Shown here: one piece after another, positions 23,770 to 53,305 of the stretch
Position numbering within the stretch: the stretch's first letter is position 1
How the letters are laid out: each line of letters opens with the position of its first letter
DNA from: a virus
Lineage: Duplodnaviria > Heunggongvirae > Uroviricota > Caudoviricetes
Length of the DNA stretch: 54,993 nucleotides
Reading direction: 5' to 3' (one strand)
Virus record (IMG/VR): IMGVR_UViG_2923302340_000009
Coordinates: 1-54,993 of that record
Position numbers and translations under genes: made by a program
Notes under the pieces: generated by a model
The model's input: only the letters and a program-made list of their open reading frames with translations
The model's database searches: none
What the model was told of the DNA's origin: nothing

Positions 23770-23954
23770 AGCCAGCGCAATGTCGCGTTATCAGTCCTCA
23801 GATGTGAGGGATGTAGCCAGCTTTTCCCCCAGTGGGGGATATCCAGCACCGACGGCTTAACTGTGCGTGCCAGCACAAGGTAGCCTTGAACTACTTACTG
23901 CATCCCATCTTACAGGCCGTGCCTTCCTGCTTAACTTTTTGCAATGCAACAAGT

Positions 23955-23978
23955 CAGCCAGCGCAATTTTGCGTTATC
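23955..23978 (+). repeat. 24-bp direct repeat cagccagcgcaatNtNgcgttatc (second copy)
   Basis: The first copy lies at 23769-23792 and matches 22/24. It contains the small palindrome cgcaa-tt-ttgcg. Confidence 0.7.
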
Positions 23979-23993
23979 GGGAATATCAGCAAG

Positions 23994-24275
23994 TTACCGC
24001 CGCAATCGTTCCGGCTTCTTCCACTGGTAAGTATTTTTCGCGCTCTCCCTCCGTTGTTGAGAAAGGCGACGATATGCCAGCAACTCAAGGACTCTTGTTC
24101 GTATGTTGCGCATATCCACGCCGTTAAGCTCAATACCGTCACGGCGCATCACCTCAGCCACTACACGCACATAATTATCTGCGGTCACGCTGTCCGGCTG
24201 CGTGGCCTGTTCGTCATGCTGCTTGCTGATTCCACAAGCACGGCGGATTAATCGCAGTATTTCGGATTCAGTCAT
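23994..24275 (-). CDS. hypothetical basic protein downstream of the island small terminase
   Basis: 93-aa ORF, 12 nt after the terS-like stop. No family recognised. Confidence 0.5.
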   Translation of the reverse strand: MTESEILRLIRRACGISKQHDEQATQPDSVTADNYVRVVAEVMRRDGIELNGVDMRNIRTRVLELLAYRRLSQQRRESAKNTYQWKKPERLRR

Positions 24276-24286
24276 AGCGTACTACG

Positions 24287-24829
24287 TTACTTATCTTTAT
24301 TCGGCTGCAACTTATCCGGTACGTTTCCGGCAGTTTCCATCAGATAATCGGACAGCATCAGCGGTATGTTTTCGTCAAGTTTTGCGCATGCGTTACAGGC
24401 TCTGATAACTTCTTTTTTCAGTCCATCCAGCATAGACGGCTTCATGTCGGGAAACTTCCTTGTCATGGCAAGCGGCAGGCTGTCCATGATTGAAGAAATC
24501 TGACTCGCCAATTTTGAAAGCACGTATATACAAAACGCTGTATCAATAACGTCGCCGCGTTCGCGCTCGTTTTTAAGCTCCTGCGCCTCTGCCTGTGCTG
24601 TCAGCAATCTGATCCTGACTCGTAGGAGTTCATCATCATCAATCTCGCCTTTGTCGTCTGTAATCTGGTTAATTGCATTGCTAACCCGATTGTCTATTAC
24701 GCTGGCAACATCATAAAACGCCTCGCGGCCTTTACGTTCAACGGGAGTCACTCCCCACTTGTCGAACGCTGTCGCACTTACACGGCAGCTTTGCGCCATG
24801 TTTTTTTTGTTCATCAGGTGCGATTTCAT
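24287..24829 (-). CDS. small terminase subunit, Nu1-like (island-encoded)
   Basis: The C-terminal half (AQAEAQELKNERERGDVIDTAFCIYVLSKLASQISSIMDSLPLAMTRKFP...) aligns with Nu1 in this same window (AQADAQELKNARDSAEVVETAFCTFVLSRIAGEIASILDGIPLSVQRRFP...). The N-terminal wHTH part is diverged. The start at 24829 follows a GGGGA RBS; the ORF track starts at a GTG at 24841. Confidence 0.85.
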   Translation of the reverse strand: MKSHLMNKKNMAQSCRVSATAFDKWGVTPVERKGREAFYDVASVIDNRVSNAINQITDDKGEIDDDELLRVRIRLLTAQAEAQELKNERERGDVIDTAFCIYVLSKLASQISSIMDSLPLAMTRKFPDMKPSMLDGLKKEVIRACNACAKLDENIPLMLSDYLMETAGNVPDKLQPNKDK

Positions 24830-24841
24830 CAATATCCCCAC

Positions 24842-25030
24842 TTAAGTAATGTTTCAGGTTGGTGTATTGACTTTATCTTTTCCTTTTTATTCATAGAGAT
24901 AGAGCGAACAACAAAACCACCACCAGCACCCGAAAAAGGCTCATAAATAGCGAAAACCCGCGAGGTCGCCGCCCCGTAGCCTACCGGATCACCGGAAAGG
25001 ACCCGCCAGCCAGAGCGGGCCCTAATTTCA
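24842..25030 (-). promoter_or_regulatory. island cos site (cosQ-cosN-cosB); cosN 12-mer at 24963-24974
   Basis: Positions 24941-25012 are 64/72 identical to the prophage cos (37706-37777). cosN on the coding strand reads GGGCGGCGACCT, the canonical lambda cohesive end. The cosB side toward terS is unrelated to lambda. Confidence 0.85.
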
Positions 25031-25414
25031 TCAACCAATCAGCTTATAGCGACCATCCCGTGCATTGCGGCGTACACGCTCAATCTTGAGGCATAGCGCC
25101 GCATCTGGCTTTTTTGGGACAGGTACGCGGCAATATTCAGAAGCGCGAGGAATATTATTTATCCAGTCGATCACTTCACTTAAATACCAGGCCTTACGCC
25201 CTTCCGTAACCTGCACACGCTCCGGGAACTCTCCACTAGCCTCAAGGTTTAGCAGTGTACGACGACTCAGGGTTGTAATTTCCATCACCTGATTCATATC
25301 AACAAGGCGCTCGCTTAAACACATTTTGTCAGCGATAGCTTTTAATTCCTCTACAGCTGGATTCGGGTACATCATTTCGGCAATTGGCTTAAGGTCATTG
25401 TAATCATTCTGCAT
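25031..25414 (-). CDS. AlpA/MerR-type HTH protein (island late region)
   Basis: 127 aa. The central segment LVDMNQVMEITTLSRRTLLNLEASGEFPERVQVTEGRKAWYLSEVIDWI fits the AlpA-family HTH pattern. Confidence 0.65.
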   Translation of the reverse strand: MQNDYNDLKPIAEMMYPNPAVEELKAIADKMCLSERLVDMNQVMEITTLSRRTLLNLEASGEFPERVQVTEGRKAWYLSEVIDWINNIPRASEYCRVPVPKKPDAALCLKIERVRRNARDGRYKLIG

Positions 25415-25425
25415 TGTATCCCCCT

Positions 25426-25767
25426 TTACACACGAGCCAGCGGCTGAACAGAAATACCTGAGCCAACAAACGCTGCAACCTTTACTGACAGTTCTTTAAC
25501 AGACTCAGGCCAGTTCAGAGCATCAACATTTAAGACACCTGTCTTATAGACCTGAGCCTGTGTTTTTTTCGCGGTGTCGATTTGTACAGCGGAAACATAA
25601 ACCGCTTTACCTACGCTCGAACCATCCCATACCACCAGTGCACCTGTTGCATCTTCCTGCATCAGTGGCGTAAATGCAGGAATTACCCCTTTATTAGCTG
25701 AAAATATCCCCAGCGTAGTCACCAGTGCTTCAGTGCCAGCCATGAGTTCAGTGTAATGAGTAGCCAT
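25426..25767 (-). CDS. head decoration protein D homologue (island-encoded)
   Basis: 113 aa with a strong RBS. It shares the D pattern TPLM..D....LV.WDG....AV...YK.G......L.WPE......AF.G..ISV with the helper D at 20763-21095. Confidence 0.75.
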   Translation of the reverse strand: MATHYTELMAGTEALVTTLGIFSANKGVIPAFTPLMQEDATGALVVWDGSSVGKAVYVSAVQIDTAKKTQAQVYKTGVLNVDALNWPESVKELSVKVAAFVGSGISVQPLARV

Positions 25768-25776
25768 TGCTCCCCC

Positions 25777-26823
25777 TTAGCCAATGCGAACGGTAACAAA
25801 ACGATTGATGCGGGCCGGTATTGGCTGTGGTGCTGAATGTGTCTGCACATATTCAATAGCCGGATCACCAGGCACAATATAGTTTTTCGGTGCAAGTTCG
25901 GCTTTAGTCAGCCCCATTCGGATTAGCTCCGGATCCTGAATACCGCCATAGGCGACAATCCCCTGAAGAGCCGTATTGCCAAGCACCATCAAATCAGGAT
26001 CAAGGAAATGTTTTTCTGTTCCGTCCTCGTCGGTATAACGCCCGCTGTAAACAACAATCGCAACATCGCCCATATACCCTTTAAAACTCACCGAATCACC
26101 AAGGTCTTTAAGGGCCGTTTCCAGTTCGGAATTAGAACCACGACGGGTATCCAAAGCCTCTTTTATCGCTCTGAATGAACGGTATTTCTTCCATACATTA
26201 CCACCCATAATGATGATATTAGTGACGCCCTCACTAAATTCTGCGTAGCTCTCAATATCATCATTTGGATCAAAAGTTTCTTTATCCTTACCTGACCACT
26301 CAGTACCGCCAGACTGAGTGATGATATTTTGTGGTTTTATATTCCAGTCCAGCTCATAACGTTCAATACCATCGCCCTCAATGATATTTTTCCCCGTTGT
26401 GATTGCCTGAACAGCAAGCCATTCAATACGTGCACGAATAGCTTTAGCCTGATTTACAATCGCCTGTTTAACTTTAATATTACGCGCCCCAAAAGCATTG
26501 TATTGCTCAGGTGACACACCAGCAGGGCGCACAGCTAACTTATTTGGATCAATGCTGCTTTTCGGCTTCATATAACCTGGACGAATTGTTTTTGATTCGT
26601 ATCCCTCATCTCGTGAAACTTTACTGCCCACCATAGGAGAGCAAAACGCCGCGATCGGGATATTTGGATCGTCGATCGTATCAAGAATAATGTCTCTCGA
26701 TTCAAACATTACCGAGCGAGTGAAAAACAAACTGGTAAACAACGCATTTAATTTTTTTTGCACATCTTCAGCATTAGCCACCTGCACAAGCTGTGTAGGC
26801 GAATATAAATCAACCATACTCAT
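25777..26823 (-). CDS. major capsid protein E homologue (island-encoded)
   Basis: MSMVDLYSPTQL... compares with lambda MSMYTTAQLL. A long collinear similarity includes GGTEWSGKDKETFDPNDDIESYA...DTRRGSNSELETALKDLGDSVSFKGYMGDVAIVVYSG against the helper E. The start could be 26823 or 26817. Confidence 0.88.
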   Translation of the reverse strand: MSMVDLYSPTQLVQVANAEDVQKKLNALFTSLFFTRSVMFESRDIILDTIDDPNIPIAAFCSPMVGSKVSRDEGYESKTIRPGYMKPKSSIDPNKLAVRPAGVSPEQYNAFGARNIKVKQAIVNQAKAIRARIEWLAVQAITTGKNIIEGDGIERYELDWNIKPQNIITQSGGTEWSGKDKETFDPNDDIESYAEFSEGVTNIIIMGGNVWKKYRSFRAIKEALDTRRGSNSELETALKDLGDSVSFKGYMGDVAIVVYSGRYTDEDGTEKHFLDPDLMVLGNTALQGIVAYGGIQDPELIRMGLTKAELAPKNYIVPGDPAIEYVQTHSAPQPIPARINRFVTVRIG

Positions 26824-26988
26824 CCTCTTTACATTCATTACAAATAATTGTGAATATATTCTATTACCGATGTCTGCTATGCGAACACATGCAACCAAGT
26901 GCAATGTTGTATAAAATATGCCGTAACAACTTCAGTGCTGATAATTCGTGTTAATGTATTTACTTCCTTTGGTCGGGATTTATGTAGC

Positions 26989-27017
26989 ATGCCGGAAAAT
27001 CTATTTTTTTCCGGCAT
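26989..27017. other. 11-bp-arm hairpin (atgccggaaaa-N7-ttttccggcat) between the ssb and capsid genes
   Basis: Read directly. A T-rich run follows on the plus strand only, so its role as a terminator of the minus-strand operon is uncertain. Confidence 0.5.
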
Positions 27018-27034
27018 CTTTTTGTTTGCAGAAT

Positions 27035-27457
27035 TTAAAACGGTATATTATCGCCGTACGGATCATCATTCCCCGACTGTTGTTTTGCCCTGTTCAGTGC
27101 GTCAGTGGCCTGCCCCTGCTGGCCTTTTTTGCCGCCCGGTCGCGCCGTTCGCGCACTGATTACGCTGTCTGCGATAACCTGCCAGCCCCGCCGCGTTTCG
27201 CCGTTCTGGCCTGTCCACTGGCTTACCTGCATGTTACCCGCCACGCTCACCAGTTCGCCTTTGTGGTGTTTTGCCAGTGCGTCGGCCTGTCTGCCAAACG
27301 CCAGGACGGATAACCACATCGTCGCCGTTCCGTCATCTGCCTGGCTGCACGGCAGGGGAACCGCCATACTCGCCATCGCCATTTGTGTCCCTTTGCTGGT
27401 GGTCTTTAACTGCGGGTCAGCCACCAGCCGCCCGTAAGCCGCTATCTGTGCTGTCAT
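27035..27457 (-). CDS. ssb: single-stranded DNA-binding protein
   Basis: 140 aa with an OB-fold-like N-terminus, a Gly/Gln-rich linker and the acidic SSB tail ...DDPYGDNIPF. Confidence 0.8.
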   Translation of the reverse strand: MTAQIAAYGRLVADPQLKTTSKGTQMAMASMAVPLPCSQADDGTATMWLSVLAFGRQADALAKHHKGELVSVAGNMQVSQWTGQNGETRRGWQVIADSVISARTARPGGKKGQQGQATDALNRAKQQSGNDDPYGDNIPF

Positions 27458-27705
27458 GCTGTCTGCTCTCCGGTTTTAACATTGATGGTTGTCACCTGTT
27501 CCGCTTCGGCAATCTCCCGTTCTGTCAGCGTGGCAAAGTTTGCCGCTGCTGTGGTCATAAATGCGCTTATCAGGTCGGGATGTTCCTTCGCGTATCCTGC
27601 CCGTGTGTGGTGGTCTATCGCTTTGATTGCCACCTTTAAGGAAAGCTCTGTCATGTCTAACGCTTTATATTTTGCCTGTGTTCTGTCTCTGCGAATTTTG
27701 GTCAT
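27454..27705 (-). CDS. hypothetical protein
   Basis: The ORF overlaps the ssb start (ATGA). The likely start is MTKIRRDRTQAKYK at 27705; the tracked ORF extends to 27768. Confidence 0.5.
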   Translation of the reverse strand: MTKIRRDRTQAKYKALDMTELSLKVAIKAIDHHTRAGYAKEHPDLISAFMTTAAANFATLTEREIAEAEQVTTINVKTGEQTA

Positions 27706-27818
27706 TTGTCGCCCCTGATTCATGTTTTCGGCTGGCATGTTTGTTAAGTGATTTTTATGTATGCGCATTTATTTTCACCCCCCCTCGTTTAAAAAGTTTT
27801 TAGTTGTGCCTCCCCCCC

Positions 27819-28037
27819 TCTACCCATCTACCCGAATGCTCATCATGTCAGTAATGGCGCCGCTTTCAGCGGGTAGATAGCTTTTTTGACTCCTCTACCT
27901 GCCGTCTACCCTGCTACCTGAAACTGATAAAATCAGGTAGAAGAGGTAGAGAGCTTTTATTAGCCTTCTACCTAGCCCTATATCCACTTATCATGTTGAA
28001 TAATATGCATTTATTTCGTTCAGGTAGATGGGGTAGA
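27819..28037. repeat. island replication origin: at least 10 TCTACC/GGTAGA iterons flanking an AT-rich core
   Basis: tctacc occurs at 27819, 27827, 27894, 27905 and 27967. ggtaga occurs at 27872, 27936, 27945, 28023 and 28032. The AT-rich stretch at 27975-28020 lies immediately downstream of the primase-helicase gene. Confidence 0.8.
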
Positions 28038-28053
28038 TGGCTTTTACAAAAAA

Positions 28054-29808
28054 TTATAAAAACGCGTCGCAATCGTCTGTTGTAATTGCGTTGGTCTGCG
28101 TTACTCCCTTAACTTTTCGCGTAATATATTCATGCCCGTAAACTTTCGCCGCTGGCTTCATGGCCTTGCTGAACTCAGCCACGTTTAGCGGTTTGCTCCT
28201 GCCCGCGTATGCCATAAACGCCAGATAGACGCGGTAAAGGCTGTTCCTGGTCGTGTACTTCACTGAATCACCACCGCCACCCATCATCAGGCCGCGCGCT
28301 TCCTCCAGAAAATTCAGGAACTGGCAAAACTCAATAACCGGATCCGTCTGTTGCTTTATTGCCAGTGCTTCATCACCGTCACGCTGTTCCAGTAGTAAAG
28401 CCCGTGCCTTCTCAGGGTCGGTAAAGTTCGCCAGCAATCGGCGGATAATAACGGGGATTTCAGCCGCAATCTTTTCCGGTAGCTCCCTGTCTTTTTCGGC
28501 CTCACTGACGATATTGTCGAAACGGAAAATCACGCGACGACGTGCCACACCTCCGGCCCGTTCGGTGAATATCATCGGGTTGTTGTTGGTCGCCAGCACC
28601 ACCGCCCTGATTACCGCCGTGAAACGCTTTTCATATTTCGGGTTAATTTCCACGGGGTCGCCGCCTGTGATTTTCTTGATGCCCGTTCCTTCGCCTGTAT
28701 ATTTCGGCTGGTCAGCCAGGACGATAAGACGACTCCCGACAACCTGCGCACGTCCACCAGCATCATCAAGCGATGTCATTTCAGCGCTTACCGTGTTCTG
28801 TTTCCCTGCCAGAAGGCTGGCTATGTGTGTGAATGTACTTTTACCGCTCCCGCCGTCTCCGGTGGCCTCAATAAACATCTGCCAGTCGTACCGGTTCGCC
28901 ATAATCATGTACAGCGCGGCACATATACGCATCATCTTGCGCGGGTCTTTTCCGGCTGCGTGCTCAAGCCATTTATGAAAGTTTGGCGCGTTATCGCGGA
29001 TGTTCTCCCCTGGTGCTGGTGGCGTGTACTCAATGCCGTTGTGCGTGGTGATCCAGTTCTCCGGCGTGTGCGGGGAAAATTCCCCCGTTTTCAGGTCAAG
29101 CGCACCATTGGCGAACGGCAGCAAATCGCCAGACGGCTCGCCCATTGGTTCGGCAATAACTTTTAACGCTTCCACGGCGTTATTGATTACGCGCTTGCTG
29201 AAAGTGGCCCTGTGCTCTGAATAGATCGCCACCATTTCGCGGCTAAGTTCCATTGTGCTGACCGGACACCATACCCCGCCGCGCCATACGTGAACGATTT
29301 CACTTTCAGGATGTACGCAAACGCCATCAAAGCGATCGGCAAGCAACTGCGCGCGCTCACTGTCCGCCATCTGCGAAAGTTGCGCCTTTTGCTTTACCGG
29401 AAGCTCAATGACCAGACCATCAGAAAGATTCTGGCGTTCACGGGCCAGATATTCGCGCCAGGTCTGCACCTCCTGGCCGTGCATACCCTCAGGATAAAAA
29501 TTTGCATCCTGTACGCCTGCTGCCGCCAGCTTCTGACCAATCGCCTTTATCATTACAGGCGCAAGATATCCGGCCCTGTATATGCGTGCTGATTTTCGGC
29601 CTTCCGGCACAATTTGCAGATTATCCAGTTCGGATAGCTGCTGCTCCCCAAGCCACACAGGAGGCTCATTATCTCCGGCCATACGCGCATCATGTTCCTG
29701 CCATTGTTTCGCGTGTGCCCAGGCATCACTACCCGCAAAAATAATTACTTCTGTTCCTTTGTGTTTTATGCCGCGTGACTGCTGTTTTACGTTCGGTGCC
29801 AGTTTCAT
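28054..29808 (-). CDS. primase / SF3-helicase replication protein (P4-alpha / D5-like)
   Basis: 584 aa with a Walker A motif EATGDGGSGKSTF and a central phage/plasmid-primase-like region. It is adjacent to the iterons. Confidence 0.8.
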   Translation of the reverse strand: MKLAPNVKQQSRGIKHKGTEVIIFAGSDAWAHAKQWQEHDARMAGDNEPPVWLGEQQLSELDNLQIVPEGRKSARIYRAGYLAPVMIKAIGQKLAAAGVQDANFYPEGMHGQEVQTWREYLARERQNLSDGLVIELPVKQKAQLSQMADSERAQLLADRFDGVCVHPESEIVHVWRGGVWCPVSTMELSREMVAIYSEHRATFSKRVINNAVEALKVIAEPMGEPSGDLLPFANGALDLKTGEFSPHTPENWITTHNGIEYTPPAPGENIRDNAPNFHKWLEHAAGKDPRKMMRICAALYMIMANRYDWQMFIEATGDGGSGKSTFTHIASLLAGKQNTVSAEMTSLDDAGGRAQVVGSRLIVLADQPKYTGEGTGIKKITGGDPVEINPKYEKRFTAVIRAVVLATNNNPMIFTERAGGVARRRVIFRFDNIVSEAEKDRELPEKIAAEIPVIIRRLLANFTDPEKARALLLEQRDGDEALAIKQQTDPVIEFCQFLNFLEEARGLMMGGGGDSVKYTTRNSLYRVYLAFMAYAGRSKPLNVAEFSKAMKPAAKVYGHEYITRKVKGVTQTNAITTDDCDAFL

Positions 29809-30104
29809 TTTTTACCTCTGAATCCGTTAATCATGGTTTTCATTTTCTGGATATTTCCCCACGCTTTTTCCCTGCTGATGGGCTTACTGCGGGGTGCGGC
29901 ATATACCAGGGAAAAATCACGCCGGAACTGATAAACAGGCATCACGCAGTCATAGCTATACCCCTCACGGCGGTAAGTGATGCGCCGTTCTGCCACGCCT
30001 TTAATCGTTACCGTGCCGCCGTATTTATCGCGGTAAATATCGCCGTTCATAAATTCAGGTCGAGCGGGGCCGCTGGCAATAAAGCCAGAATTTTTCATTT
30101 CCAT
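29805..30104 (-). CDS. DUF4222-like small protein
   Basis: 99 aa. The motif GDIYRDKYGGTVTIKGVAERRITYRREGYSYDCVMPVYQFRRDF resembles DUF4222 proteins. Family recalled from memory. Confidence 0.5.
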   Translation of the reverse strand: MEMKNSGFIASGPARPEFMNGDIYRDKYGGTVTIKGVAERRITYRREGYSYDCVMPVYQFRRDFSLVYAAPRSKPISREKAWGNIQKMKTMINGFRGKK

Positions 30105-30121
30105 ATTATTTATTCCTCGAC

Positions 30122-30343
30122 TTAACTCGACTTATTTGATAGCAGGGCACTATTTATTGCGTCATTGAGTTTTTCTGCTGATTCATCAATAAGTGACAAC
30201 AGGCCATAAGCAATATTTGCATCTTCATTGTCATTTATGCAATCAAGCCACATATTTAATATTGCTTTTGCTGAATTATTTAAAGTTAATGAACTTTCTG
30301 CACATGCTAACAATTTAAAAAAGACTTCCCGTTCTGTATTCAT
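30122..30343 (-). CDS. hypothetical protein
   Basis: 73-aa ORF in the operon, low GC. Confidence 0.45.
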   Translation of the reverse strand: MNTEREVFFKLLACAESSLTLNNSAKAILNMWLDCINDNEDANIAYGLLSLIDESAEKLNDAINSALLSNKSS

Positions 30344-30535
30344 TTAATCCCCCACCAGCTTACTTTCTTCCTCAATCAAAAAACTAGCGACACTTCCCGA
30401 AAGACGCGCCAGTAGGCTCGCCAGTGCGGATATATCAGCATCTGTAATTTTGTTCGGGTATACCTCAAGAAGGCGGCAAATAATTTCTGTCTGGTGCGCA
30501 CGTTCAGCGGCTTCGTGTAATGTAATTTCCTGCAT
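30344..30535 (-). CDS. hypothetical protein
   Basis: 63-aa ORF abutting its neighbours, which suggests coupling. Confidence 0.45.
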   Translation of the reverse strand: MQEITLHEAAERAHQTEIICRLLEVYPNKITDADISALASLLARLSGSVASFLIEEESKLVGD

Positions 30536-30720
30536 TAATGCACCTCTTTTAATTCATACACTGCTGAAATAATGACTTGTGATAAGCCATATTCTGATGA
30601 TTCGCTTCTCACCGCAGCAATAGCCGTCTGAACATTAACAGCCTTCACATTCTGAGCGATACCAATTGTGTGGCCTATTGGGTTAACAGCTCGGGCAAAT
30701 ACACGGAAGGTTTTAAGCAT
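30535..30720 (-). CDS. hypothetical protein
   Basis: 61-aa ORF. Its start overlaps the stop of the upstream gene (ATGCTTAA). Confidence 0.45.
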   Translation of the reverse strand: MLKTFRVFARAVNPIGHTIGIAQNVKAVNVQTAIAAVRSESSEYGLSQVIISAVYELKEVH

Positions 30721-30910
30721 GACTCACTCCCTGGCGGATTTTTGCAGCGAATACAGCAACACAACCGGACGGGCAACGGCTACGCGCTTCGCGTTCCGTC
30801 CAGGCGGTTACGTGGATGATTTGAGATTCTCCGGCACTCAGTGCCAGAAAACGCCACACAAAGGCCGTTTGTGTGTGTACAAGGTGTGGTATATGATTTA
30901 CAGCAACCAT
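30713..30910 (-). CDS. Icd-like small protein (cell-division-inhibitor-like family of P1/P4-type elements)
   Basis: 65 aa, MVAVNHIPHLVHTQTAFVWRFLALSAGESQIIHVTAWTEREARSRCPSGCVAVFAAKIRQG, with an AGGAG RBS. It is the only credible part of the 356-aa tracked ORF. Family recalled from memory. Confidence 0.45.
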   Translation of the reverse strand: MVAVNHIPHLVHTQTAFVWRFLALSAGESQIIHVTAWTEREARSRCPSGCVAVFAAKIRQGVSHA

Positions 30911-30939
30911 AACGGCTCCTAGTTTACGTTGTTGGTTAG

Positions 30940-30973
30940 ACGCCCCGTATGTGTTCCCAGCACTGCGGGGCGT
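30940..30973. other. 8-bp-stem hairpin (acgccccg-N18-cggggcgt) in the leader of the island early operon
   Basis: Read directly. It lies between the operator repeats and the Icd-like start, so it is a candidate leader or antisense RNA element. Confidence 0.45.
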
Positions 30974-31001
30974 TGCTCTTTGTATTTCAACAATCCTTTC
31001 G

Positions 31002-31079
31002 GTGTGTTTCATGTTATGAGCGCATGAAACACACGTCAAGGCTTTTTGTATTTCTTTTTTTGTGTATACTGAAACACAC
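31002..31079. promoter_or_regulatory. operator-like repeats in the divergent control region
   Basis: A perfect 12-bp inverted repeat gtgtgtttcatg (31002-31013) / catgaaacacac (31023-31034) is present. A third half-site tgaaacacac lies at 31070-31079, just upstream of the RHH-like gene. Confidence 0.65.
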
Positions 31080-31100
31080 CGATGATTAGGAGTTTCAGAA

Positions 31101-31406
31101 ATGGCAACGGCTAACAAAAACGCAAAATCACAACTGACAACTGTCAGAGTCCCACTAGATGTTATGCAAGGGATGGAATCCGTTAAGCTGGACGGTGAAA
31201 GCAATGCCGGATTTATCGTAACCGCCATGCGCGGAGAAATAGCCCGCCGCCAAGCAGAAGGCAGCGGAGAAAATCCCCTTGTGTCGTCACTGGATGCCCT
31301 GGCTAAGGTCGAACAAATCGGCATCAAAGCAGCCGAGGAGATCGGGCAACTCGTCACCGTCGCGCGTGAAGAACTCCAGCGACGCAAGGTCAAAGAGCAT
31401 GAATAG
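31101..31406 (+). CDS. putative ribbon-helix-helix regulator (candidate island repressor)
   Basis: 101 aa with an AGGAG RBS. The N-terminus QLTTVRVPLDVMQGMESVKL...GFIVTAMRGEIARRQ fits a beta-strand plus two helices. It is divergent from the replication operon. Confidence 0.45.
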   Translation: MATANKNAKSQLTTVRVPLDVMQGMESVKLDGESNAGFIVTAMRGEIARRQAEGSGENPLVSSLDALAKVEQIGIKAAEEIGQLVTVAREELQRRKVKEHE

Positions 31407-31463
31407 CCAATATCAGCGCCATAGTTTGAGGAACGCAGGCGCATTGCTTTACAGGACAGCACC

Positions 31464-31643
31464 ATGAGCGACACAGAATCAACCAAAACACCATCACCAA
31501 CTCGTAAGAGACGACGCAAAAATATAGCGCATGAACATGAATCAGAAAGATTCGCACCTTGTTCGTTTGCTCTTGAGAAATTCCTTAAAGAGCACAGGAA
31601 AAAGCTCTCGTTGCAAACCTTGGAACGAACCAAATCTGACTGA
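31464..31643 (+). CDS. possible 59-aa basic protein
   Basis: ATG at 31464 with AGGA 7 nt upstream. It encodes MSDTESTKTPSPTRKRRRKN... and is followed by a terminator. It falls below the ORF-track cutoff. Confidence 0.35.
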   Translation: MSDTESTKTPSPTRKRRRKNIAHEHESERFAPCSFALEKFLKEHRKKLSLQTLERTKSD

Positions 31644-31709
31644 TCACATTGCCCACCAGCCGCAAATGTGGCATTGTTGGTGATGCTTTTGTTTTCCCTT
31701 GTTCCCACT

Positions 31710-31739
31710 GGCGACCCTTTTGCGGTCGCCTTTGTTTTG
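31710..31739 (+). terminator. rho-independent terminator
   Basis: The hairpin ggcgacc-cttttgc-ggtcgcc is followed by tttgttttg. Confidence 0.75.
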
Positions 31740-32318
31740 TCACTGAATGCGGTTACCAAAGTAAAACTCAGGCTGATATTCACGTATCAGCGTTTTTTCT
31801 TCTTCCTCCAGCTCACGCTTTTTGCGCTTACATGCCTGTAGCTCCCTCCCCTTCTCGCTGGCACTTATTTGATATTGCTCTTTACGGCGGGAAAAATCCT
31901 GTAATGCACCCCACGGGATACCATAAGTCCCCGTTTTTCTGATACCTGGTATCACATTTCTGAATACCCAGTTACTGAAACGATGAGCAAATGTGCCAGG
32001 CGTCGTTGCTTTGCGGCTGCGGGCTATTAGTTTGTAGAAACCTGACTCAGAGATAATTCTCATATTCTGATTTCCTCCTGGGGTGTAAGTTAAATTTACT
32101 CCCTTTTCATCATCATCAAGCATCTGCAACGCCGTACGCGAATTGGTTAGTTCCAGCGCAGCACAAACATCTTTTGCAACAAACCACGGATCGCCGTTCA
32201 GATACACCACACGAACGTTCACACTATCAAAGCGCAGAACGACGAGATCACGAATATCGCAGAATTTTTTCACTGGACGAGCGTACCCCTTGCCCGTCAC
32301 GGCAATATTTTTATTCAT
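31740..32318 (-). CDS. Bro-N domain protein (antirepressor-like)
   Basis: 192 aa. VRVVYLNGDPWFVAKDVCAALELTNSRTALQMLDDDEKG...ISESGFYKLIARSRK matches the Bro-N pattern. Confidence 0.75.
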   Translation of the reverse strand: MNKNIAVTGKGYARPVKKFCDIRDLVVLRFDSVNVRVVYLNGDPWFVAKDVCAALELTNSRTALQMLDDDEKGVNLTYTPGGNQNMRIISESGFYKLIARSRKATTPGTFAHRFSNWVFRNVIPGIRKTGTYGIPWGALQDFSRRKEQYQISASEKGRELQACKRKKRELEEEEKTLIREYQPEFYFGNRIQ

Positions 32319-32338
32319 CGCGTTTTTACCTTATAGAC

Positions 32339-32361
32339 AAAAAACCCCTCGTGATGAGGGG
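32339..32361 (-). terminator. rho-independent terminator between the alpA-like and bro-like genes
   Basis: The coding strand reads gcccctc-atcac-gaggggtttttt. Confidence 0.7.
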
Positions 32362-32374
32362 CATTATTTACTGG

Positions 32375-32632
32375 TTATTGCTGTTTTGTTTTTCCAGGTT
32401 TCCATCCAGGATGCCACTCACCACGGATCCATGCCTGAACCTCTGAAAGTCGATACCCTGCAGCACGTTCACCGATCTTGATACGTCGCGGGAATTTACC
32501 TGCCTGCTCCATTTTCCAGCGTGTTGAGTTTGCCAGCGTGGTAAGTGCTATGCACTCTTTTTCACGAATGAACCGATCAATGTCCTTCATTGTGCGCAAA
32601 TCGTTTTCATCAACAAGAGAATAAATTGCCAT
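32375..32632 (-). CDS. alpA: AlpA-family transcriptional regulator / excisionase-like
   Basis: 85 aa. FIREKECIALTTLANSTRWKMEQAGKFPRRIKIGERAAGYRLSEVQAWI is the AlpA pattern. It lies immediately downstream of int. Confidence 0.85.
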   Translation of the reverse strand: MAIYSLVDENDLRTMKDIDRFIREKECIALTTLANSTRWKMEQAGKFPRRIKIGERAAGYRLSEVQAWIRGEWHPGWKPGKTKQQ

Positions 32633-32633
32633 A

Positions 32634-33875
32634 TCACACCACCTCTTTATTAAGCTCGATAACGTTGTTGTTAAATCCTGCTATCGTATTAAGGTAATTA
32701 ACCCACATATTAAGCACCTCAAGTTTTTTCTTTATATGCCTGCTTTTATTGTAAACACCAGCAACCCCTTTCACTTTATGACCTAAAAGAAGTTCGACAA
32801 TATAAGGATCCGCCCCCATATCATTAAGCGTAGTGGAAAATGTGCGCCTGAAATCATGTATGCACCACAAGCCATTAGTATCATGACCAAGACGCCTGCA
32901 TATTCTGTTTGCAGCCCCTGTTATTGTCGCCCTTTGCAAAGCACAACCGACAACATAACCGCGATTTTTTGTTTCTGCGTAAAGATTAACGATCCATTGT
33001 TTTATTCCGTCAGGAACAGGCCTTACTATAGCCTCCTTGTTTTTGCTGTGCTCTTTTGGGACTGTCCATACCCAGTTTTTTAAATCCCATTCGTCCCAGG
33101 TGGATAGCCTCGCCTCCTGCTGTCGGCAACCAAACACCAGGCAGATAACCATTATTCTTCGGTTATATATTGATGACAGAGTTAGCAAATTATTACCGTA
33201 AGCATAAGACCATACATCAGCGGTTTCATTGATATTAAGAACGCGATCCCTTATACCGGATGAGCGCCCGACATAACTTACGTTAATATCTCCAAAGGGA
33301 TCGCACGCGATGTATTGCCTGACGCGACAAAAACGCAACGCCTGTTTGATATCAAGAAAAATTGCACCAGACATAACAGGCGCATTTTTTTTGATCCTGT
33401 CAAAGACGGTAAGCCATGTGTGTAATTTGCACTGTTCTATAGCCATATCACCGATATAGGGGAAGATATGCTTTTCAAATCGTTTTATTAAATATTCATG
33501 CTCTTTTCTGGCTGTTGTGGCGTGATTGTCGTACCAGTAAAACAGCGCATCCCTTACGGTCACTGGTTGCATAGTTTTTTCGGCAGCAAGTTTTATTTGC
33601 CTGCGGGGGTCCAGATTTTCAGCCAGCCATTCACGGCACTGATCACGCATGCGCCTGGCCGTTGCAAGAGACATGTCAGGATAGCGACCAAGTGTAAGCC
33701 ATACCGGAGGGAATTCCCTGCCACCAAGACGATAGTAAAAAACAAAGCTGATCCCCCCAACCATGCTTACACGCACAGACAACCCGCGCCCATCCGCTAT
33801 TGTTTTTTGTTTGTCCTGCCGTTTTCCGACAAGACTCTTTAACAGTTTGTCACTGAGTTTGTTTTCAATAGCCAT
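32634..33875 (-). CDS. int: tyrosine integrase, P4-type
   Basis: 413 aa with an N-terminal DUF4102-like arm-binding part and the catalytic motifs HDFRRT, LLGH and a C-terminal Tyr region. It is adjacent to the att repeat. Confidence 0.92.
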   Translation of the reverse strand: MAIENKLSDKLLKSLVGKRQDKQKTIADGRGLSVRVSMVGGISFVFYYRLGGREFPPVWLTLGRYPDMSLATARRMRDQCREWLAENLDPRRQIKLAAEKTMQPVTVRDALFYWYDNHATTARKEHEYLIKRFEKHIFPYIGDMAIEQCKLHTWLTVFDRIKKNAPVMSGAIFLDIKQALRFCRVRQYIACDPFGDINVSYVGRSSGIRDRVLNINETADVWSYAYGNNLLTLSSIYNRRIMVICLVFGCRQQEARLSTWDEWDLKNWVWTVPKEHSKNKEAIVRPVPDGIKQWIVNLYAETKNRGYVVGCALQRATITGAANRICRRLGHDTNGLWCIHDFRRTFSTTLNDMGADPYIVELLLGHKVKGVAGVYNKSRHIKKKLEVLNMWVNYLNTIAGFNNNVIELNKEVV

Positions 33876-33895
33876 TAAAAGCCCTCAAGAGATTT

Positions 33896-33947
33896 GCAAT
33901 ACACACCCATCCCGATCGCCAATTTGCAATACACATTGCAATACACA
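33896..33947 (+). repeat. three direct copies of GCAATACACA; candidate integrase arm-type sites
   Basis: The copies lie at 33896-33905, 33926-33935 and 33938-33947, in the same orientation as the two copies at 23259-23280. Confidence 0.6.
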
Positions 33948-34023
33948 AAACCGCGAAAAACTGGAAGGGTGATGAACGGTCATCAAAAGCATGGAAAACG
34001 ACATTCCAGACGCAGCAAGGGTT

Positions 34024-37004
<2,981 letters not shown>

Positions 37005-40025: not shown

Positions 40026-40829
40026 ATGACAGAAAAAGATAACATTGGTAAGTTAATTTGGCATATTGCTTGCGATGAATCTGGCATTGATGGGCAACGT
40101 TTCTACGGCTTTGGCAGTCTGTGGATGAAGTACCAACGCCGTGGGGATTTCTGTCAACTAATCAGAGAACTACGCAGCAAACATGGTTTTTTTGAAGAAA
40201 TAAAATGGCAAAAAGCCCATTCAAAAAGATACTCTGAATTTTATCTTGAGCTGATCGACTTATTCTTTAGAGTTCCTTGGCTAGCTTTTCATTGTATCGT
40301 GGTTGAAAAATCAATAGTAAACAAGGCATTTCATAATGGGGATTATGACCTGGCAAGGAGAAAGCACTTCACAAATCTCATTACCACAAAAATTAGCTCT
40401 GTAATTTCTGCACACCCTGAAAGAGACAGTTACTTCAGGATTGAAGTTGATCCTATCGCATCTCGTTATAAAAAGGCCGATGAAGAACTAAATGTTATTG
40501 CCAATAACATATTGAATAGAAAATTTGGTCGTAAAGGGATAATCAGCAGTGTAGTGACAAAAGACTCTAAAGCATCTGAAAACATTCAGCTAGCCGATTT
40601 TTTCTTAGGTGCGGTTATGTGCGCATATCAAGGAAAAGCTTCATCTGAAGCCAAAATAAGAGTATCAAACTATGTTGCTTCATATTTAGGCTGGGATCAT
40701 TTGCAATATGATACATGGCACACTGAGAGAAAATTTAATATCTGGTATTTTTATGATAAAACTCGAGGGCCACGAGATATAGAAACTCAAAATGTTAGCT
40801 TAAAGTATCCACTTCCCCAAAAGAAATAG
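40026..40829 (+). CDS. DUF3800-like protein (orphan moron, antisense to the late operon)
   Basis: 267 aa, low GC. The motifs HIACDESGIDG, EIKWQKAHS and NIQLADFFLGAV resemble the DUF3800 signature. Family recalled from memory. Confidence 0.55.
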   Translation: MTEKDNIGKLIWHIACDESGIDGQRFYGFGSLWMKYQRRGDFCQLIRELRSKHGFFEEIKWQKAHSKRYSEFYLELIDLFFRVPWLAFHCIVVEKSIVNKAFHNGDYDLARRKHFTNLITTKISSVISAHPERDSYFRIEVDPIASRYKKADEELNVIANNILNRKFGRKGIISSVVTKDSKASENIQLADFFLGAVMCAYQGKASSEAKIRVSNYVASYLGWDHLQYDTWHTERKFNIWYFYDKTRGPRDIETQNVSLKYPLPQKK

Positions 40830-43328: not shown

Positions 43329-44639
43329 CTATGGATTAGAGAGTGAATCTGGATGTGGTATTTCAGCCATGACCTCCTCTGCATCACAGTTGTCGATAAA
43401 AAAGTATAAAGTTGAGTCAACAATTTTTAAACGCCTGGTACCTTGATCATAATCGAATAATGGCGGAACGATATTCTGATTTGTTTGAAGTATAGGCAAT
43501 CGCTTCAGTGTCCCTGTTACATCAGAAGTTCTGACGTTATCAGGATGAGTATGTATTTCTTTAATAAGTTCCTGTAGAGTCTTTCTCTCAATCCCATCCT
43601 TGAGCTCAGAATAAGTTCTACTTAACAGAACTTGAACTAAATAATACTGAAGATACAAAGCCACAGCCTCTTCACTTGGCCTGCGACTTCGACTCCCTGC
43701 GGCAATTGACTCAAGACTACGGACATGTCTTGACGAATAATCTGCAACCTTAACGTCAATTGCTCTTTGTAGAACGGCCATATCACTCAAATAAACTACT
43801 TCTTGTTGGACCATTCGTATTCCTGACAATTCACAAAGTTGCTTAAGAAGCTCTTGCACTACTGCAACACTTCCATGGGCCTCTTCAAATATACGCTCTT
43901 TAATTTGCTCTGAAATAGATATATTTAAACACTGCTCGCCAACTGTAGCGATTCTTGAAAAGTCACCTTTATCCCATGGCTCAACAGGAACCTCAGCCAT
44001 ACGGTCCTGTAAGTCGCCATTAAACTGAATAAGACGATTATTTTCTCTCCATACTCCGAGTATGATAAATCTAATACCCATTTCTTCAAATGTACGAAGA
44101 TCAAATGCCAACTGTCCTTGAACTTCAACAGAGAGATAATGAAAGTTTTCGAGAACGAAGAACTTATCCTTCCCGCCAACATTAATCAATAATTCTCCTA
44201 CATCTTGTGCCGCCGTCAAGTTGAACTCAATCGGCCTAGATTTTGTTTCTGTATTTTTGGATATCGTCCCTTCAACCCCCGCCTCTACTTCAGTTTTTGC
44301 TAAAAATGGCAGGATGGCAGAAAAAGTGCTTTTTAAAGACGCTGAAGCCTCCTTAGAGTTACCTGTTGTTCTCTCGGTAATAATTTCCACTCCAAAGTGA
44401 CGTAAAAATGTACGATAGATATCTTCCGCAGAATTGGTGGGACCACAATGATATGTAACCCTGCTGTTTTCATCTAAATGGCGCTGAAGTAAGGCTGTTT
44501 TCCCTTGTTTTGATGAGCCATAAATCACGATCTGCTTCGTCGTTGCAAGTGCATCAGCAAGTGCCTGATCGACCTTTTCACGTTCAATATAGCTGGCTAC
44601 CGGATCTCTTGATACTCCGAATACATTATTTAGATGCAT
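43329..44639 (-). CDS. orphan P-loop ATPase (AAA/Arch-ATPase-like) with alpha-helical C-terminal half
   Basis: 436 aa. Walker A is GSSKQGKT and the Walker-B-like motif is FFVLENFHYL. It is low in GC and flanked by non-coding DNA on both sides. Confidence 0.7.
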   Translation of the reverse strand: MHLNNVFGVSRDPVASYIEREKVDQALADALATTKQIVIYGSSKQGKTALLQRHLDENSRVTYHCGPTNSAEDIYRTFLRHFGVEIITERTTGNSKEASASLKSTFSAILPFLAKTEVEAGVEGTISKNTETKSRPIEFNLTAAQDVGELLINVGGKDKFFVLENFHYLSVEVQGQLAFDLRTFEEMGIRFIILGVWRENNRLIQFNGDLQDRMAEVPVEPWDKGDFSRIATVGEQCLNISISEQIKERIFEEAHGSVAVVQELLKQLCELSGIRMVQQEVVYLSDMAVLQRAIDVKVADYSSRHVRSLESIAAGSRSRRPSEEAVALYLQYYLVQVLLSRTYSELKDGIERKTLQELIKEIHTHPDNVRTSDVTGTLKRLPILQTNQNIVPPLFDYDQGTRRLKIVDSTLYFFIDNCDAEEVMAEIPHPDSLSNP

Positions 44640-51040: not shown

Positions 51041-51717
51041 CACCGGACATTATCCTGCAGCGTACCGGGATCGACGTGAGAGCTGTCGAACAGGGGGATG
51101 ATGCGTGGCACAAATTACGGCTCGGCGTCATCACCGCTTCAGAAGTTCACAACGTGATAGCAAAGCCCCGCTCAGGAAAGAAGTGGCCTGACATGAAAAT
51201 GTCCTACTTCCACACCCTGCTGGCTGAGGTTTGCACCGGTGTGACTCCGGAAGTTAATGCTAAGGCGCTGGCCTGGGGAAAACAGTACGAGAACGACGCC
51301 AGAACTCTGTTTGAATTCACTTCCGGCGTGAATGTTACTGAATCCCCGATCATCTATCGCGACGAAAGTATGCGCACCGCCTGCTCTCCCGATGGTTTAT
51401 GCAGTGACGGCAATGGCCTTGAGCTGAAATGCCCGTTTACCTCCCGGGATTTCATGAAGTTCCGGCTCGGTGGTTTCGAGGCCATAAAGTCGGCTTACAT
51501 GGCCCAGGTGCAGTACAGCATGTGGGTGACACGAAAAGATGCCTGGTACTTTGCCAACTATGACCCGCGTATGAAGCGTGAAGGACTGCATTATGTCGTG
51601 GTTGAGCGGGATGAAAAGTACATGGCGAGTTTTGACGAGATGGTGCCGGAGTTCATCGAAAAAATGGACGAGGCACTGGCTGAAATTGGTTTTGTATTTG
51701 GGGAGCAATGGCGATGA
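51037..51717 (+). CDS. exo: exonuclease Exo
   Basis: 226 aa, [54 protein letters not shown], matching lambda Exo. Confidence 0.96.
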
Positions 51718-51872
51718 CGCATCCTCACGATAATATCCGGGTAGGCGCGATCACTTTCGTCTACTCCATTACAAAGCGAGGCTGGGTATTTCCCGGCCTT
51801 TCTGTTATCAGAAATCCACTGAAAGCACAGCGGCTGGCTGAGAAGATAAATAATAAACAGGAGGATATATGA
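51714..51872 (+). CDS. small ORF after exo (lambda orf60a-like N-terminus, shortened)
   Basis: 52 aa, translated by hand: [52 protein letters not shown]. It overlaps the exo stop and, through ATGA, the next gene. Confidence 0.55.
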
Positions 51873-52933
51873 GTCAGGTTGGTAATCATTCATTCGAATT
51901 TCCGGCATCGCAAGGTGTACAGGGTGGTACTGTTACACTCTTCCTTACCATACCAGGAAGATCGCTGGCTCGTTTCCTCGCTTCAGATAATTACGGCCAT
52001 ACACTGGAACGCTCTCAGCGAGAAATTAATCCAAATCGAGTACGAAAATTTTTAAATTATCTCACTAACGCAGACTCAAGAAATGAGCCTTTTATCATTC
52101 CCCCTCTCGTAGGTAACTGTGATTCGAATATAGAATTTGTACCGTTTGGCAACACAAATGTTGGTATAGCCAGAATTCCCCTCGACGCCGAAATAAAACT
52201 TTTTGATGGTCAACATCGTGCAGCTGGCATTGAGATATTTTGCCGAAGCTCCCCATCAACGCTCATGGTTCCCATGATGCTTACAATGAATCTGCCGCTA
52301 AAAACCCGGCAGCAGTTCTTTTCGGACATAAATAACAACGTTTCTAAGCCATCAGCGACCATCAATATGGCGTATAACGGCCGGGATGATATTGCTCAGG
52401 GAATGATATCCTTCCTGACCCAACATACTGTATTTGCCGATATAACCGATTTTGAACACAACGTAGTGCCATTAAAAAGTAATATGTGGGTGAGTTTCAA
52501 GGCACTCACTGATGCAACGTCAAAGTTCGCTAGGAACGGCAATCAACAACTTGAAATGGGATATATAGAATCTGTCTGGGAGGCATGGATTACACTAACT
52601 CAGATTGACTCAATTCGACATGGTGTACACCACGCTACGTACAAGCGCGATTATATTCAGTTCCATGGAGTAATGATTAACGCTTTCGGTTTTGCGGTTC
52701 AACAGATGATGGTTAATCATTCCATCGCAGAAATAACTTCTATGATCGAAAAACTATGTGCAACTACCAGCTCTGCAGAAAGAGAGGATTTTTTTCTGAT
52801 GGATAACTGGGCGGGGATCTGCACGAAAGCCAGCCAGGAAAAACTATCTGTTATTGCCAATGTGGCAGCGCAGAAAGCAGCAGCAAACAGACTGATACAA
52901 GCTTTTACCAAAGGAAGTCTGGAAACAACTTAA
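51869..52933 (+). CDS. DGQHR-domain protein (DndB-like, ParB/Srx fold)
   Basis: 354 aa. The literal motif LFDGQHRAAGIE is preceded by QREINPNRVRKFLNYL. GC is low relative to exo. It has its own terminator. Confidence 0.75.
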   Translation: MSQVGNHSFEFPASQGVQGGTVTLFLTIPGRSLARFLASDNYGHTLERSQREINPNRVRKFLNYLTNADSRNEPFIIPPLVGNCDSNIEFVPFGNTNVGIARIPLDAEIKLFDGQHRAAGIEIFCRSSPSTLMVPMMLTMNLPLKTRQQFFSDINNNVSKPSATINMAYNGRDDIAQGMISFLTQHTVFADITDFEHNVVPLKSNMWVSFKALTDATSKFARNGNQQLEMGYIESVWEAWITLTQIDSIRHGVHHATYKRDYIQFHGVMINAFGFAVQQMMVNHSIAEITSMIEKLCATTSSAEREDFFLMDNWAGICTKASQEKLSVIANVAAQKAAANRLIQAFTKGSLETT

Positions 52934-53000
52934 TGAATCAACATTGTCTCATATCAGCATGCTGTACGGCGTCTTTAAGGAACGGTGAGCATGAAAAACA

Positions 53001-53021
53001 AAATCATCATGGAGCTACAGG
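53001..53021 (+). terminator. rho-independent terminator after the DGQHR gene
   Basis: The hairpin ggagc-tacag-gctcc is followed by tttttt. Confidence 0.75.
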
Positions 53022-53086
53022 CTCCTTTTTTATTATTCGCATTCACCCTCAAGCGTATTAACCAACAATTCAGGGATTAATGAAAG

Positions 53087-53305
53087 ATGGCAGACATCAT
53101 TGATTCAGCATCAGAAATCGAAGAATTACAGCGCAATACAGCAATAAAAATGCGTCGTCTGAACTACCAGACTGTATCCGCAACTCATTGTTGTGAGTGT
53201 GGCGATCCGATAGATGAGCGAAGACGCCTGGCTGTTCAGGGTTGTCGGACTTGTGCTAGTTGCCAGGAGGAGATCGAACTTAAGAACAAACAATGGGGAC
53301 TGTGA
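53087..53305 (+). CDS. TraR/DksA-family C4 zinc-finger protein
   Basis: 72 aa with CCECGDPIDERRRLAVQGCRTCASC. Confidence 0.8.
   Translation: MADIIDSASEIEELQRNTAIKMRRLNYQTVSATHCCECGDPIDERRRLAVQGCRTCASCQEEIELKNKQWGL

Follow-up and report, generated by a model that had tools for sequence, protein, structure and literature searches.

We analysed a gene for a protein with the DGQHR motif in IMG/VR record IMGVR_UViG_2923302340_000009, a stretch of 54,993 nucleotides (hereafter the window) that holds a DLP12-type lambdoid prophage of Escherichia coli. Our reading of this gene, termed here the DGQHR gene, to which we assign a probability of about 45%, is that its product is an early-expressed, DNA-associated protein of the ParB/sulfiredoxin (Srx) fold, gated by nucleotide triphosphates (NTPs), which would aid the establishment of the element that encodes it. 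This role is favoured because of the fold and motif of the protein, the precedents set by orphan ParB-fold proteins, and a location among the genes that would be expressed first.

Domain architecture and predicted nucleotide binding

The initial annotation had described a 354-aa protein with a literal DGQHR motif and had assigned it to the DGQHR/DndB-like proteins of the ParB fold, and both statements were borne out when the domain check was run. The protein matches Pfam PF14072 (DndB) over residues 11-286 with 158.2 bits against a cutoff of 29.1 (E 3.8e-46), and the NCBIfam DGQHR-domain model TIGR03187 over all 276 profile positions with 188.8 bits against a cutoff of 58.85 (E 1.5e-55), that is, far above the cutoff in both cases. 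DGQHR and DndB-related models are its only matches in NCBIfam, DndB is its only match in PADLOC (4e-37), and phrog_7901, a family of 'unknown function', is matched over the full length (7e-216). A ParB-like match among the PHROGs was weak (E 0.011), and no match to PF02195 (ParBc) was obtained at E up to 1. The gene is thus a well-supported, full-length and intact member of the mobile-element branch of the DGQHR/DndB family that is described in the next section.

The N-terminal domain has the ParB/sulfiredoxin fold. In an AlphaFold2 model (pLDDT 81) the DGQHR residues lie at the end of a strand (109-113) and at the start of a helix (115-127); by analogy, this is where ParB-type NTPases have their phosphate-binding box, a likening drawn in the literature (PMC10164549). 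Among 34 homologues of 52-73% identity, which are conserved over their whole length, RSQRE, DGQHR, FFSDINNN and DFE are invariant. Two invariant motifs, RSQRE (48-52) and SDINNNVSKP (152-161), fall in loops that the model predicts with low confidence, which would fit loops that become ordered upon ligand binding. Because a ParB-type fold is combined with an invariant DGQHR box, we predict that the N-terminal domain is an NTP-binding switch, followed by a helical domain; a DndB-like protein has been found to bind ATP and GTP (PMC12704722).

The C-terminal half of the protein is helical and has no convincing fold neighbour, and a viral fold search of BFVD returned uncharacterised DndB/DUF262-like proteins only. 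With Pfam, DndB was the sole match: neither HNH/DUF1524 nor any other nuclease domain or motif was detected, and the earlier suggestion that the protein may cleave modified DNA is therefore not upheld. The protein likewise belongs to none of the Pfam families of ArdA, ArdB/KlcA and ArdC, its link with anti-restriction functions being one of neighbourhood. Pfam applied to ten longer relatives (430-661 aa) gave DndB and no fusion partner.

A mobile-element branch distinct from DndB

A word-indexed protein search found 247 proteins, the best 120 of which are complete or almost complete in length, at 53-73% identity with the query; among these 120, all with source names come from Enterobacterales, and they are named either 'DGQHR domain-containing protein' or 'hypothetical protein'. 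An exhaustive profile search gave 831 clusters at E <=1e-3 and 79 at E <=1e-30, and the best 150 clusters were nearest to enterobacterial mobile-element types (39), Vibrio-phage types (39) or DndB types (72). An alignment of 15 sequences gave pairwise identities of 29-82% within the mobile-element group and of 19-28% between this group and two true DndBs. The members of the group share motifs that are absent from DndB or changed in it (RSQRE, RQQFFSDINNNxSKP, D(F/Y)E(H/K/N)N and SFKAL), and most of them have a C-terminal W.G.C motif, which is missing from both aligned DndBs. Judged from these sequences, the DGQHR gene is part of a distinct mobile-element branch, whose members were encountered here solely on phages, plasmids and integrative elements. 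This branch is apparently an offshoot of the DndB family that has become detached from phosphorothioation and specialised for mobile elements.

DndB (DptB; PF14072; TIGR03233) is a DNA-binding repressor of its operon dndBCDE (PMC4507180). The window protein resembles it in length, in the DGQHR box, in homology over ~280 residues and in the succession of a ParB/Srx-fold N-terminal domain and a helical domain. However, sequence comparison indicates that it is not a DndB. Its score with the DndB equivalog model TIGR03233 is 106.9 bits against a cutoff of 328, and none of ten scanned cluster representatives, of which six rank among the eight with the best scores, passes this cutoff. A DndB from a dnd island of E. 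coli shares 23% identity with the window protein (E 8e-26, residues 5-284). Cys29, a key residue when Salmonella DndB binds DNA (PMC4507180), is replaced: Ile28 aligns with Cys29 of E. coli DndB, and homologues have I, V or A at this position. Likewise, RSQRE and DFEHNVVP of the mobile-element proteins correspond to RAQR and TELEKS in DndB.

The genomic surroundings agree with this distinction. The initial annotation saw no dnd partner in the window, and tblastn with E. coli queries for DndC/D/E and DptF/G/H was indeed negative there. The same search covered another 30 loci whose relatives are >=29% identical, with flanks of up to 10 kb, and found no dndCDE or dptFGH at any of them; with the window these make 31 loci, and several of the 30 are near-duplicates and some have flanks that end at contig ends. 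A Halobacteriovorax protein that is 25% identical to the query and 48% identical to E. coli DndB has DndC and DndD directly downstream, and its locus served as an internal positive control for the partner search. A TGT-like (DpdA) gene was found neither among the window ORFs scanned nor in the neighbour tables of the relatives. It is therefore well supported that the DGQHR gene is tied to no dnd, ssp or dpd cluster, and the neighbourhoods of its homologues indicate that solitude is the rule of the subfamily, so that the window copy is not a fragment of a larger cluster.

The distribution in complete E. coli genomes points the same way. The DGQHR gene is present in 283 of 5,426 genomes (~5%), always at >=99% identity and at full length in 281 of the 283, and DUF1317 adjoins it in every E. 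coli row among the matches listed. Since dndCD occurs in 207 of the 5,426 genomes, at least 76 carriers must be devoid of this dnd type. Among the matches listed, 30 carriers and 60 dnd-positive genomes have no accession in common, but with 0.3 expected this comparison carries no weight, and the usable figure is the lower bound of 76. The palindrome TACG-N10-CGTA, the operator of DndB, does not occur in the window, with an expectation of 0.26 there, but any such operator would lie in the dnd promoter of the host.

As a side observation, the dnd island of E. coli NADC 6564 contains a second DGQHR gene between dndE and dptH (locus L011, 8108-9268, minus strand), annotated in two pieces as a 'DGQHR domain-containing protein' and a short 'DndB'. 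It follows that dnd islands themselves hold extra, possibly decayed, DGQHR paralogues.

Position in the early-left operon

Alignment with lambda and with a sister prophage indicates that the DGQHR gene is an allelic swap for lambda orf63/orf61 in the early-left operon, and it is well supported by these alignments that the exchange took place at gene boundaries. On the left, lambda identity drops off after ~51858, and the DGQHR start codon coincides with the start of the next lambda gene (locus 1662-1853; DUF1382 in the RefSeq annotation of the sister prophage, L041), and on the right, similarity to lambda returns at ~52945-52960, so that the replaced segment covers ~51859-52945. In this sister DLP12-type prophage, from strain Ch1 and at the same argU site, the order is exo-DUF1317-DUF1382-hypothetical-TraR/DksA-DUF4222-intD, versus exo-DUF1317-DGQHR-TraR/DksA-DUF4222-(HTH)-intD in the window, DUF1382 and the hypothetical gene being the counterparts of the replaced orf63 and orf61. 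The accessory position that had been proposed is thus that of a replacement gene in the exo-int interval; as for the proposed displacement of lambda ea and orf genes, orf63 and orf61 were replaced and the ea genes were not. The GC content of the gene (0.429, versus 0.522 for gam-bet-exo) is consistent with a module of different origin.

The start of the DGQHR gene overlaps the TGA of the orf60a-like ORF in an ATGA at 51869-51872, which agrees with the coupling that had been noted from the sequence. This upstream ORF is indeed shortened, to 52 aa against 60 aa for lambda orf60a, or to 54 aa if its first in-frame ATG (51708) is used. A Shine-Dalgarno sequence stands 4 nt 5' of the DGQHR ATG, just beyond the left junction (Table 1). 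Since bet/exo and exo/orf60a also have overlapping stops and starts in the ORF list, the DGQHR gene is the last link in a compact gam-bet-exo-orf60a chain. Upstream of it, a consensus scan of the plus strand, a weak test, revealed no sigma-70-like site.

The initial annotation also gave the gene a strong terminator of its own, which did not hold. The hairpin in question, GGAGCTACAGGCTCC, lies 78 nt 3' of the gene and has a stem of 6 bp and a loop of 3 nt; the fold of its region is no better than that of shuffled sequences (z = -0.29), and every base of hairpin and T-run is the same in lambda, which is without the DGQHR gene. Because it lies in flanking DNA that is identical in lambda, we regard it, from this comparison, as a feature of the backbone. 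The promoter and terminator of its own that would define a 'moron' were accordingly not seen for the DGQHR gene, although consensus scans are weak evidence in this respect. The terminator-like hairpin inside orf60a is conserved with lambda at ~31.26 kb, in the neighbourhood of lambda tL3.

Further observations concern the same prophage arm. The TraR/DksA-type zinc-finger ORF 3' of the DGQHR gene (53087-53305, plus strand) has a closely conserved DNA counterpart in lambda, which falls between orf61 and ea22 (J02459, ~30.4-30.65 kb), a stretch without coding sequence in that record. E. coli AST217 has the same arm (L001, 13628-15594), in which ISEc62, an element of the IS21 family, separates the TraR-like gene from DUF4222. 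In the annotation of this arm gam is a pseudogene because of an internal stop; the DGQHR gene is intact. A 5.5-kb contig labelled 'MAG: Bacillota bacterium' (L012, JAEWTL010000063.1) encodes a DGQHR protein 100% identical to that of the window, with flanking products 96-100% identical, and is probably a mis-binned E. coli contig.

Neighbourhoods in phages, plasmids and integrative elements

All phage and prophage contexts examined have the DGQHR gene in the early-left operon, with recombination functions on one side and xis/int on the other. The recombination genes vary: exo/bet in the E. coli prophage; a Rv2179c-like exonuclease upstream in Serratia; RdgC upstream and a Rv2179c-like exonuclease downstream in Tatumella; RecE/RecT in Salmonella phage SPN1S (L008), where DUF1317 is upstream and an MT-A70-type methylase is coupled downstream; and an RdgC-like gene followed by a Spo0J-like gene in Klebsiella phage ST101-KPC2phi6.3. 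Vibrio phages of 83 kb encode a 490-aa relative of 30% identity with their early genes, not far from DNA ligase and RdgC.

A 197-aa MT-A70-type DNA methyltransferase is encoded directly 3' of the DGQHR gene in SPN1S, Citrobacter and Advenella. In SPN1S (L008, 8065-8658) its start overlaps the DGQHR stop; in the Citrobacter, Advenella and Lelliottia relatives it lies at L022 ~11065, L019 ~11056 and L015 ~11526, the Lelliottia gene being ~0.5 kb further downstream.

Matches were also found by tblastn in 1,071 of 72,556 plasmids, 885 of them predicted to be conjugative; most are ~37-43% identical, and a minority (Vibrio, Pseudomonas and others) are true DndB. IncL/M plasmids have a co-oriented array, RadC(JAB)-HTH-DGQHR-DUF4942-Hha-DUF1380-antirestriction protein-ssb, that extends up to mobA/traI, and the leading-region gene orf35 of pCTX-M3 lies on the same side as this array (PMC8125031). 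An IncN-like plasmid has mucAB and then the DGQHR gene directly 5' of ardB-ardR-ccgD-ccgC. In a Buttiauxella contig, DUF1281 precedes the DGQHR gene, which overlaps psiA, and DUF932 and a relaxase follow downstream in this order; in a Xenorhabdus integrative element the neighbours include an integrase, ArdC and a UvrD-like helicase; and a Salmonella contig resembling a conjugative plasmid has topoisomerase III, H-NS, a nuclease and TrbM. In two plasmids the gene adjoins parAB, and one of these also has a KorA-like gene directly downstream. Thus the surroundings of DGQHR genes in phages and plasmids include genes that deal with incoming DNA and with responses of the host, namely Red/RecET, RdgC, ssb, psiA, ardB/ardR, KlcA-like genes, ArdC and RadC, of which ardB/ardR, a KlcA-like gene, ssb, psiA and ArdC are found among the sampled plasmid neighbours. 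Anti-defence genes are known to be enriched in plasmid leading regions (PMC11541004).

In pSD21_54kb the DGQHR gene is directly followed by a gene for a TrfB-related (KorA-like) DNA-binding protein (L038, 7204-7518), and the IncN-like plasmid has such a gene 3.8 kb 5' of its DGQHR gene (L036, 2813-3142). Such neighbours hint at a regulatory pairing of the KorA/KorB style.

Proposed role and its alternatives

Orphan ParB-fold proteins provide the precedents for the role that we propose. KorB is a CTP-dependent clamp and repressor. HerB (YfjB), a ParB-like CTPase of the F leading region, acts directly after transfer, when it binds the host chromosome and reprograms transcription (PMC13370423). 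By analogy with these two plasmid proteins (KorB being that of RK2) and with DndB, all three of which associate with DNA and regulate transcription, the DGQHR protein may be a further nucleotide switch: like HerB and KorB, it comes from the establishment or leading regions of mobile elements, has ssb and psi genes nearby and is not paired with ParA for partition (PMC13370423). Unlike them, it has neither a PF02195 match nor a recognisable helix-turn-helix (HTH), DGQHR takes the place of the GxxRxxA box, and the C-terminal domain is different, so that the likeness is one of fold and context and not of family membership.

We propose that the phage copy would be made early, together with the recombination genes, upon induction or infection, as gene order suggests, and that the plasmid relatives would be made from the leading or establishment region shortly after transfer. 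An NTP would be bound in the DGQHR pocket, and the nucleotide state may control association with DNA, as in the ParB-fold proteins DndB, KorB and HerB. The protein could then help an incoming or awakening element to establish itself by one of two routes: the DNA of the element may be shielded or handled against host restriction and nucleases, or transcription of the host or of the element may be reprogrammed.

Several observations weigh against this proposal. Early expression is deduced from gene order only, and a pL-like promoter was not found by consensus scan. The protein has no recognisable HTH, its DNA binding being predicted solely from homology, and all sampled members but one have a mildly acidic to neutral pI (5.4-6.7). 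In about 4 of the 9 sampled plasmid or integrative-element contexts, anti-restriction or psi genes lie within 7 kb, and the neighbours vary widely; parAB adjoins the gene in two contexts and a KorA-like gene is nearby in two, which fits a regulatory or maintenance role equally well. IS1 interrupts the homologue of pOXA-48-type plasmids, which can therefore do without it. The window prophage itself looks defective, its portal gene being broken by a satellite and an IS66 insertion also being present. We found, moreover, no study in the literature of a solitary phage or plasmid DGQHR protein.

With regard to the split homologue, it occurs in IncL-type plasmids of ~63.6 kb, the size of pOXA-48, from Klebsiella, Enterobacter, E. 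coli and Citrobacter (matches H183-H198; for example NZ_CP068321.1, 30197-31929), and most of the records listed annotate an IS1-family element at this point. Related IncL/M plasmids have an intact copy of 427 aa (L034). Two functional-genomics studies of pOXA-48 do not mention the DGQHR gene, and the name 'DqlB', considered for it on pOXA-48 maps, was rejected, as it belongs to an unrelated dinQ-like type I toxin.

Four other explanations were considered. The constant company of recombination genes could mean that the protein is an accessory of recombination or replication, acting on DNA ends, nicks or single-stranded DNA with Red (exo/bet/gam), RecET or RdgC, for instance by loading on or protecting intermediates: phage copies are always in or next to exo/bet, RecE/RecT, RdgC or a Rv2179c-like 3'-5' exonuclease, with DNA ligase in the Vibrio phage, and plasmid relatives are near ssb, psiA, mucAB and RadC. 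We hold this to be unlikely, as the partner differs between loci, lambda and the sister DLP12 prophage manage with the same Red genes and without a DGQHR gene, and we found no resemblance to recombination mediators already known. Defence or superinfection exclusion by the prophage, in which the DGQHR domain would depend on NTP to sense DNA that is foreign or modified, like the DUF262 domains of GmrSD/BrxU and SspE, and would so protect the lysogen from other phages, appears decidedly unlikely. The accessory slot, the PADLOC match to DndB and the presence elsewhere in the same prophage of the candidates PDC-S59 and PDC-M04A speak for it, whereas DUF262 type IV enzymes (GmrSD/BrxU) and SspE have a C-terminal HNH/DUF1524 nuclease and the window protein has neither a nuclease nor another effector domain. 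PADLOC-DB 2.0, furthermore, contains no single-gene DGQHR system. The gene has no promoter-like site upstream, the hairpin belongs to the backbone, and the gene is chained into a repressor-controlled early operon, and its plasmid relatives stand amid anti-restriction, ssb and psiA genes and not in defence islands. Thus, of the defence or anti-defence function suggested initially, the absence of a sigma-70-like site, the bet-exo-orf60a chaining and the plasmid neighbours lean away from defence expressed by the prophage and, to judge from context, towards early establishment or anti-defence.

The MT-A70-type genes invite the notion of a helper of a DNA-modifying enzyme, comparable to DpdB with DpdA or to fusions of ParB-fold domains with methyltransferases, that would support a phage methyltransferase and so evade restriction. 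Prophages are enriched in such fusions (PMC12704722), and DpdB, the ATPase partner that drives DpdA in 7-deazaguanine DNA modification, acts on DNA and resembles the window protein as a ParB-fold NTPase with a helical C-terminal domain and no nuclease motif (PMC10164549). Yet DpdB has DGQQR and not DGQHR, is nearest to SspE/DUF262 and needs DpdA (PMC10164549), the window is without an SPN1S-type methyltransferase by tblastn, adjacency is missing at most loci, and Serratia has the same methylase family in the nin region, far from its DGQHR gene, which together make this option very unlikely. It is more improbable still that the protein is a true DndB-type regulator that binds the host dnd promoter, alters phosphorothioation and so manipulates phosphorothioate-based defence, despite its homology to DndB and the repression of dndBCDE by the latter (PMC4507180). 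Every membership test that was run came out negative, including the low equivalog score, the 23% identity and Ile28 in place of Cys29; the E. coli carriers devoid of this dndCD type stand against it as well; repressed modification would give a phage that faces DndFGH no obvious benefit; and the anti-Dnd factor known from phages is a kinase (PMC12345140).

Other features of the prophage

The features of the window are collected in Table 1. A satellite-like integrative element (23200-34000) splits the lambda-type portal gene, and the prophage that holds it is probably defective; the element resembles a capsid-forming PICI or a P4-like satellite. The right half of the window (30000-54993) does not occur as one contiguous piece in any complete E. 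coli genome, the highest coverage being 75%. The ORFs matched by PDC-S59 and PDC-M04A, rather than the DGQHR gene, look like the defence cargo of this prophage. Window ORFs of at least 300 aa could be ascribed, by Pfam or RefSeq annotation, to tail, head, IS66, satellite, replication, terminase and integrase, except for two, namely 30713-31783, which had no match, and 43329-44639, which matches the PADLOC candidate PDC-S59 only.

Table 1. Coordinates of the DGQHR gene, its surroundings and other features of the window.
Feature	Position	Strand	Remarks
IS66-family transposase	16554-18125	-	between tail and head modules
ORF with transposase-type HTH (HTH_Tnp_1)	18492-19169	-	between tail and head modules
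Portal, C-terminal piece	22405-23178		beyond satellite
Nu1-like (small-terminase-like) gene of satellite	24287-24841	-	
Second capsid-E-like gene of satellite	25777-26904	-	
SSB of satellite	27035-27457	-	
D5_N primase of satellite	28054-29808	-	
Tyrosine recombinase (integrase) of satellite	32634-33875	-	
Portal, N-terminal piece	34024-34905		beyond satellite
267-aa DUF3800 protein	40026-40829	+	PADLOC PDC-M04A, 7.7e-35; between Q and lysis genes
436-aa AAA-like protein	43329-44639	-	PADLOC PDC-S59, 1.5e-72; between replication and nin/Q genes
DUF1317/lambda orf60a-like ORF	51714-51872	+	52 aa from the lambda/RefSeq start; PF07026, 4.4e-31; RefSeq; lambda alignment
Terminator-like hairpin inside orf60a	51778-51800	+	conserved with lambda at ~31.26 kb
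Shine-Dalgarno AGGAGG	51859-51864	+	5' of the DGQHR ATG
DGQHR gene	51869-52933	+	354 aa; DndB-family, ParB/Srx-fold, mobile-element subfamily
DGQHR codons (D113-R117)	52205-52219	+	motif location (residues 113-117) in the 354-aa ORF
Right junction	52945-52960	+	lambda similarity resumes
Terminator-like hairpin GGAGCTACAGGCTCC and T-run	53011-53031 (hairpin 53011-53025)	+	backbone DNA

Significance

The DGQHR family is common, with carriers in ~5% of complete E. coli genomes and a match in more than 1,000 sequenced plasmids, and these carriers include clinically important IncL/M and IncN-like backbones as well as plaque-forming phages of Salmonella and Klebsiella. Existing annotation does not go beyond 'DGQHR domain-containing protein' and a PHROG without function. 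One caution follows for genome surveys, in which DndB/PF14072 matches should not be counted as phosphorothioation systems. Placed beside anti-restriction and SOS-control genes, the gene may represent a new establishment or anti-defence function; alternatively, it may follow HerB and KorB as another nucleotide switch of the ParB fold that mobile elements use outside DNA segregation. We suggest, tentatively and with the odds rather against it, that the DGQHR proteins of mobile elements form an unrecognised class of establishment or anti-restriction factors common to temperate phages and conjugative plasmids. If this is true, a DNA-binding switch derived from DndB and gated by NTPs would be made when an element enters a cell or is induced, and would either protect the DNA of the element from restriction and defence or reprogram the host in the manner of HerB; a regulator of defence systems would then have been recruited by the very elements that such systems target.

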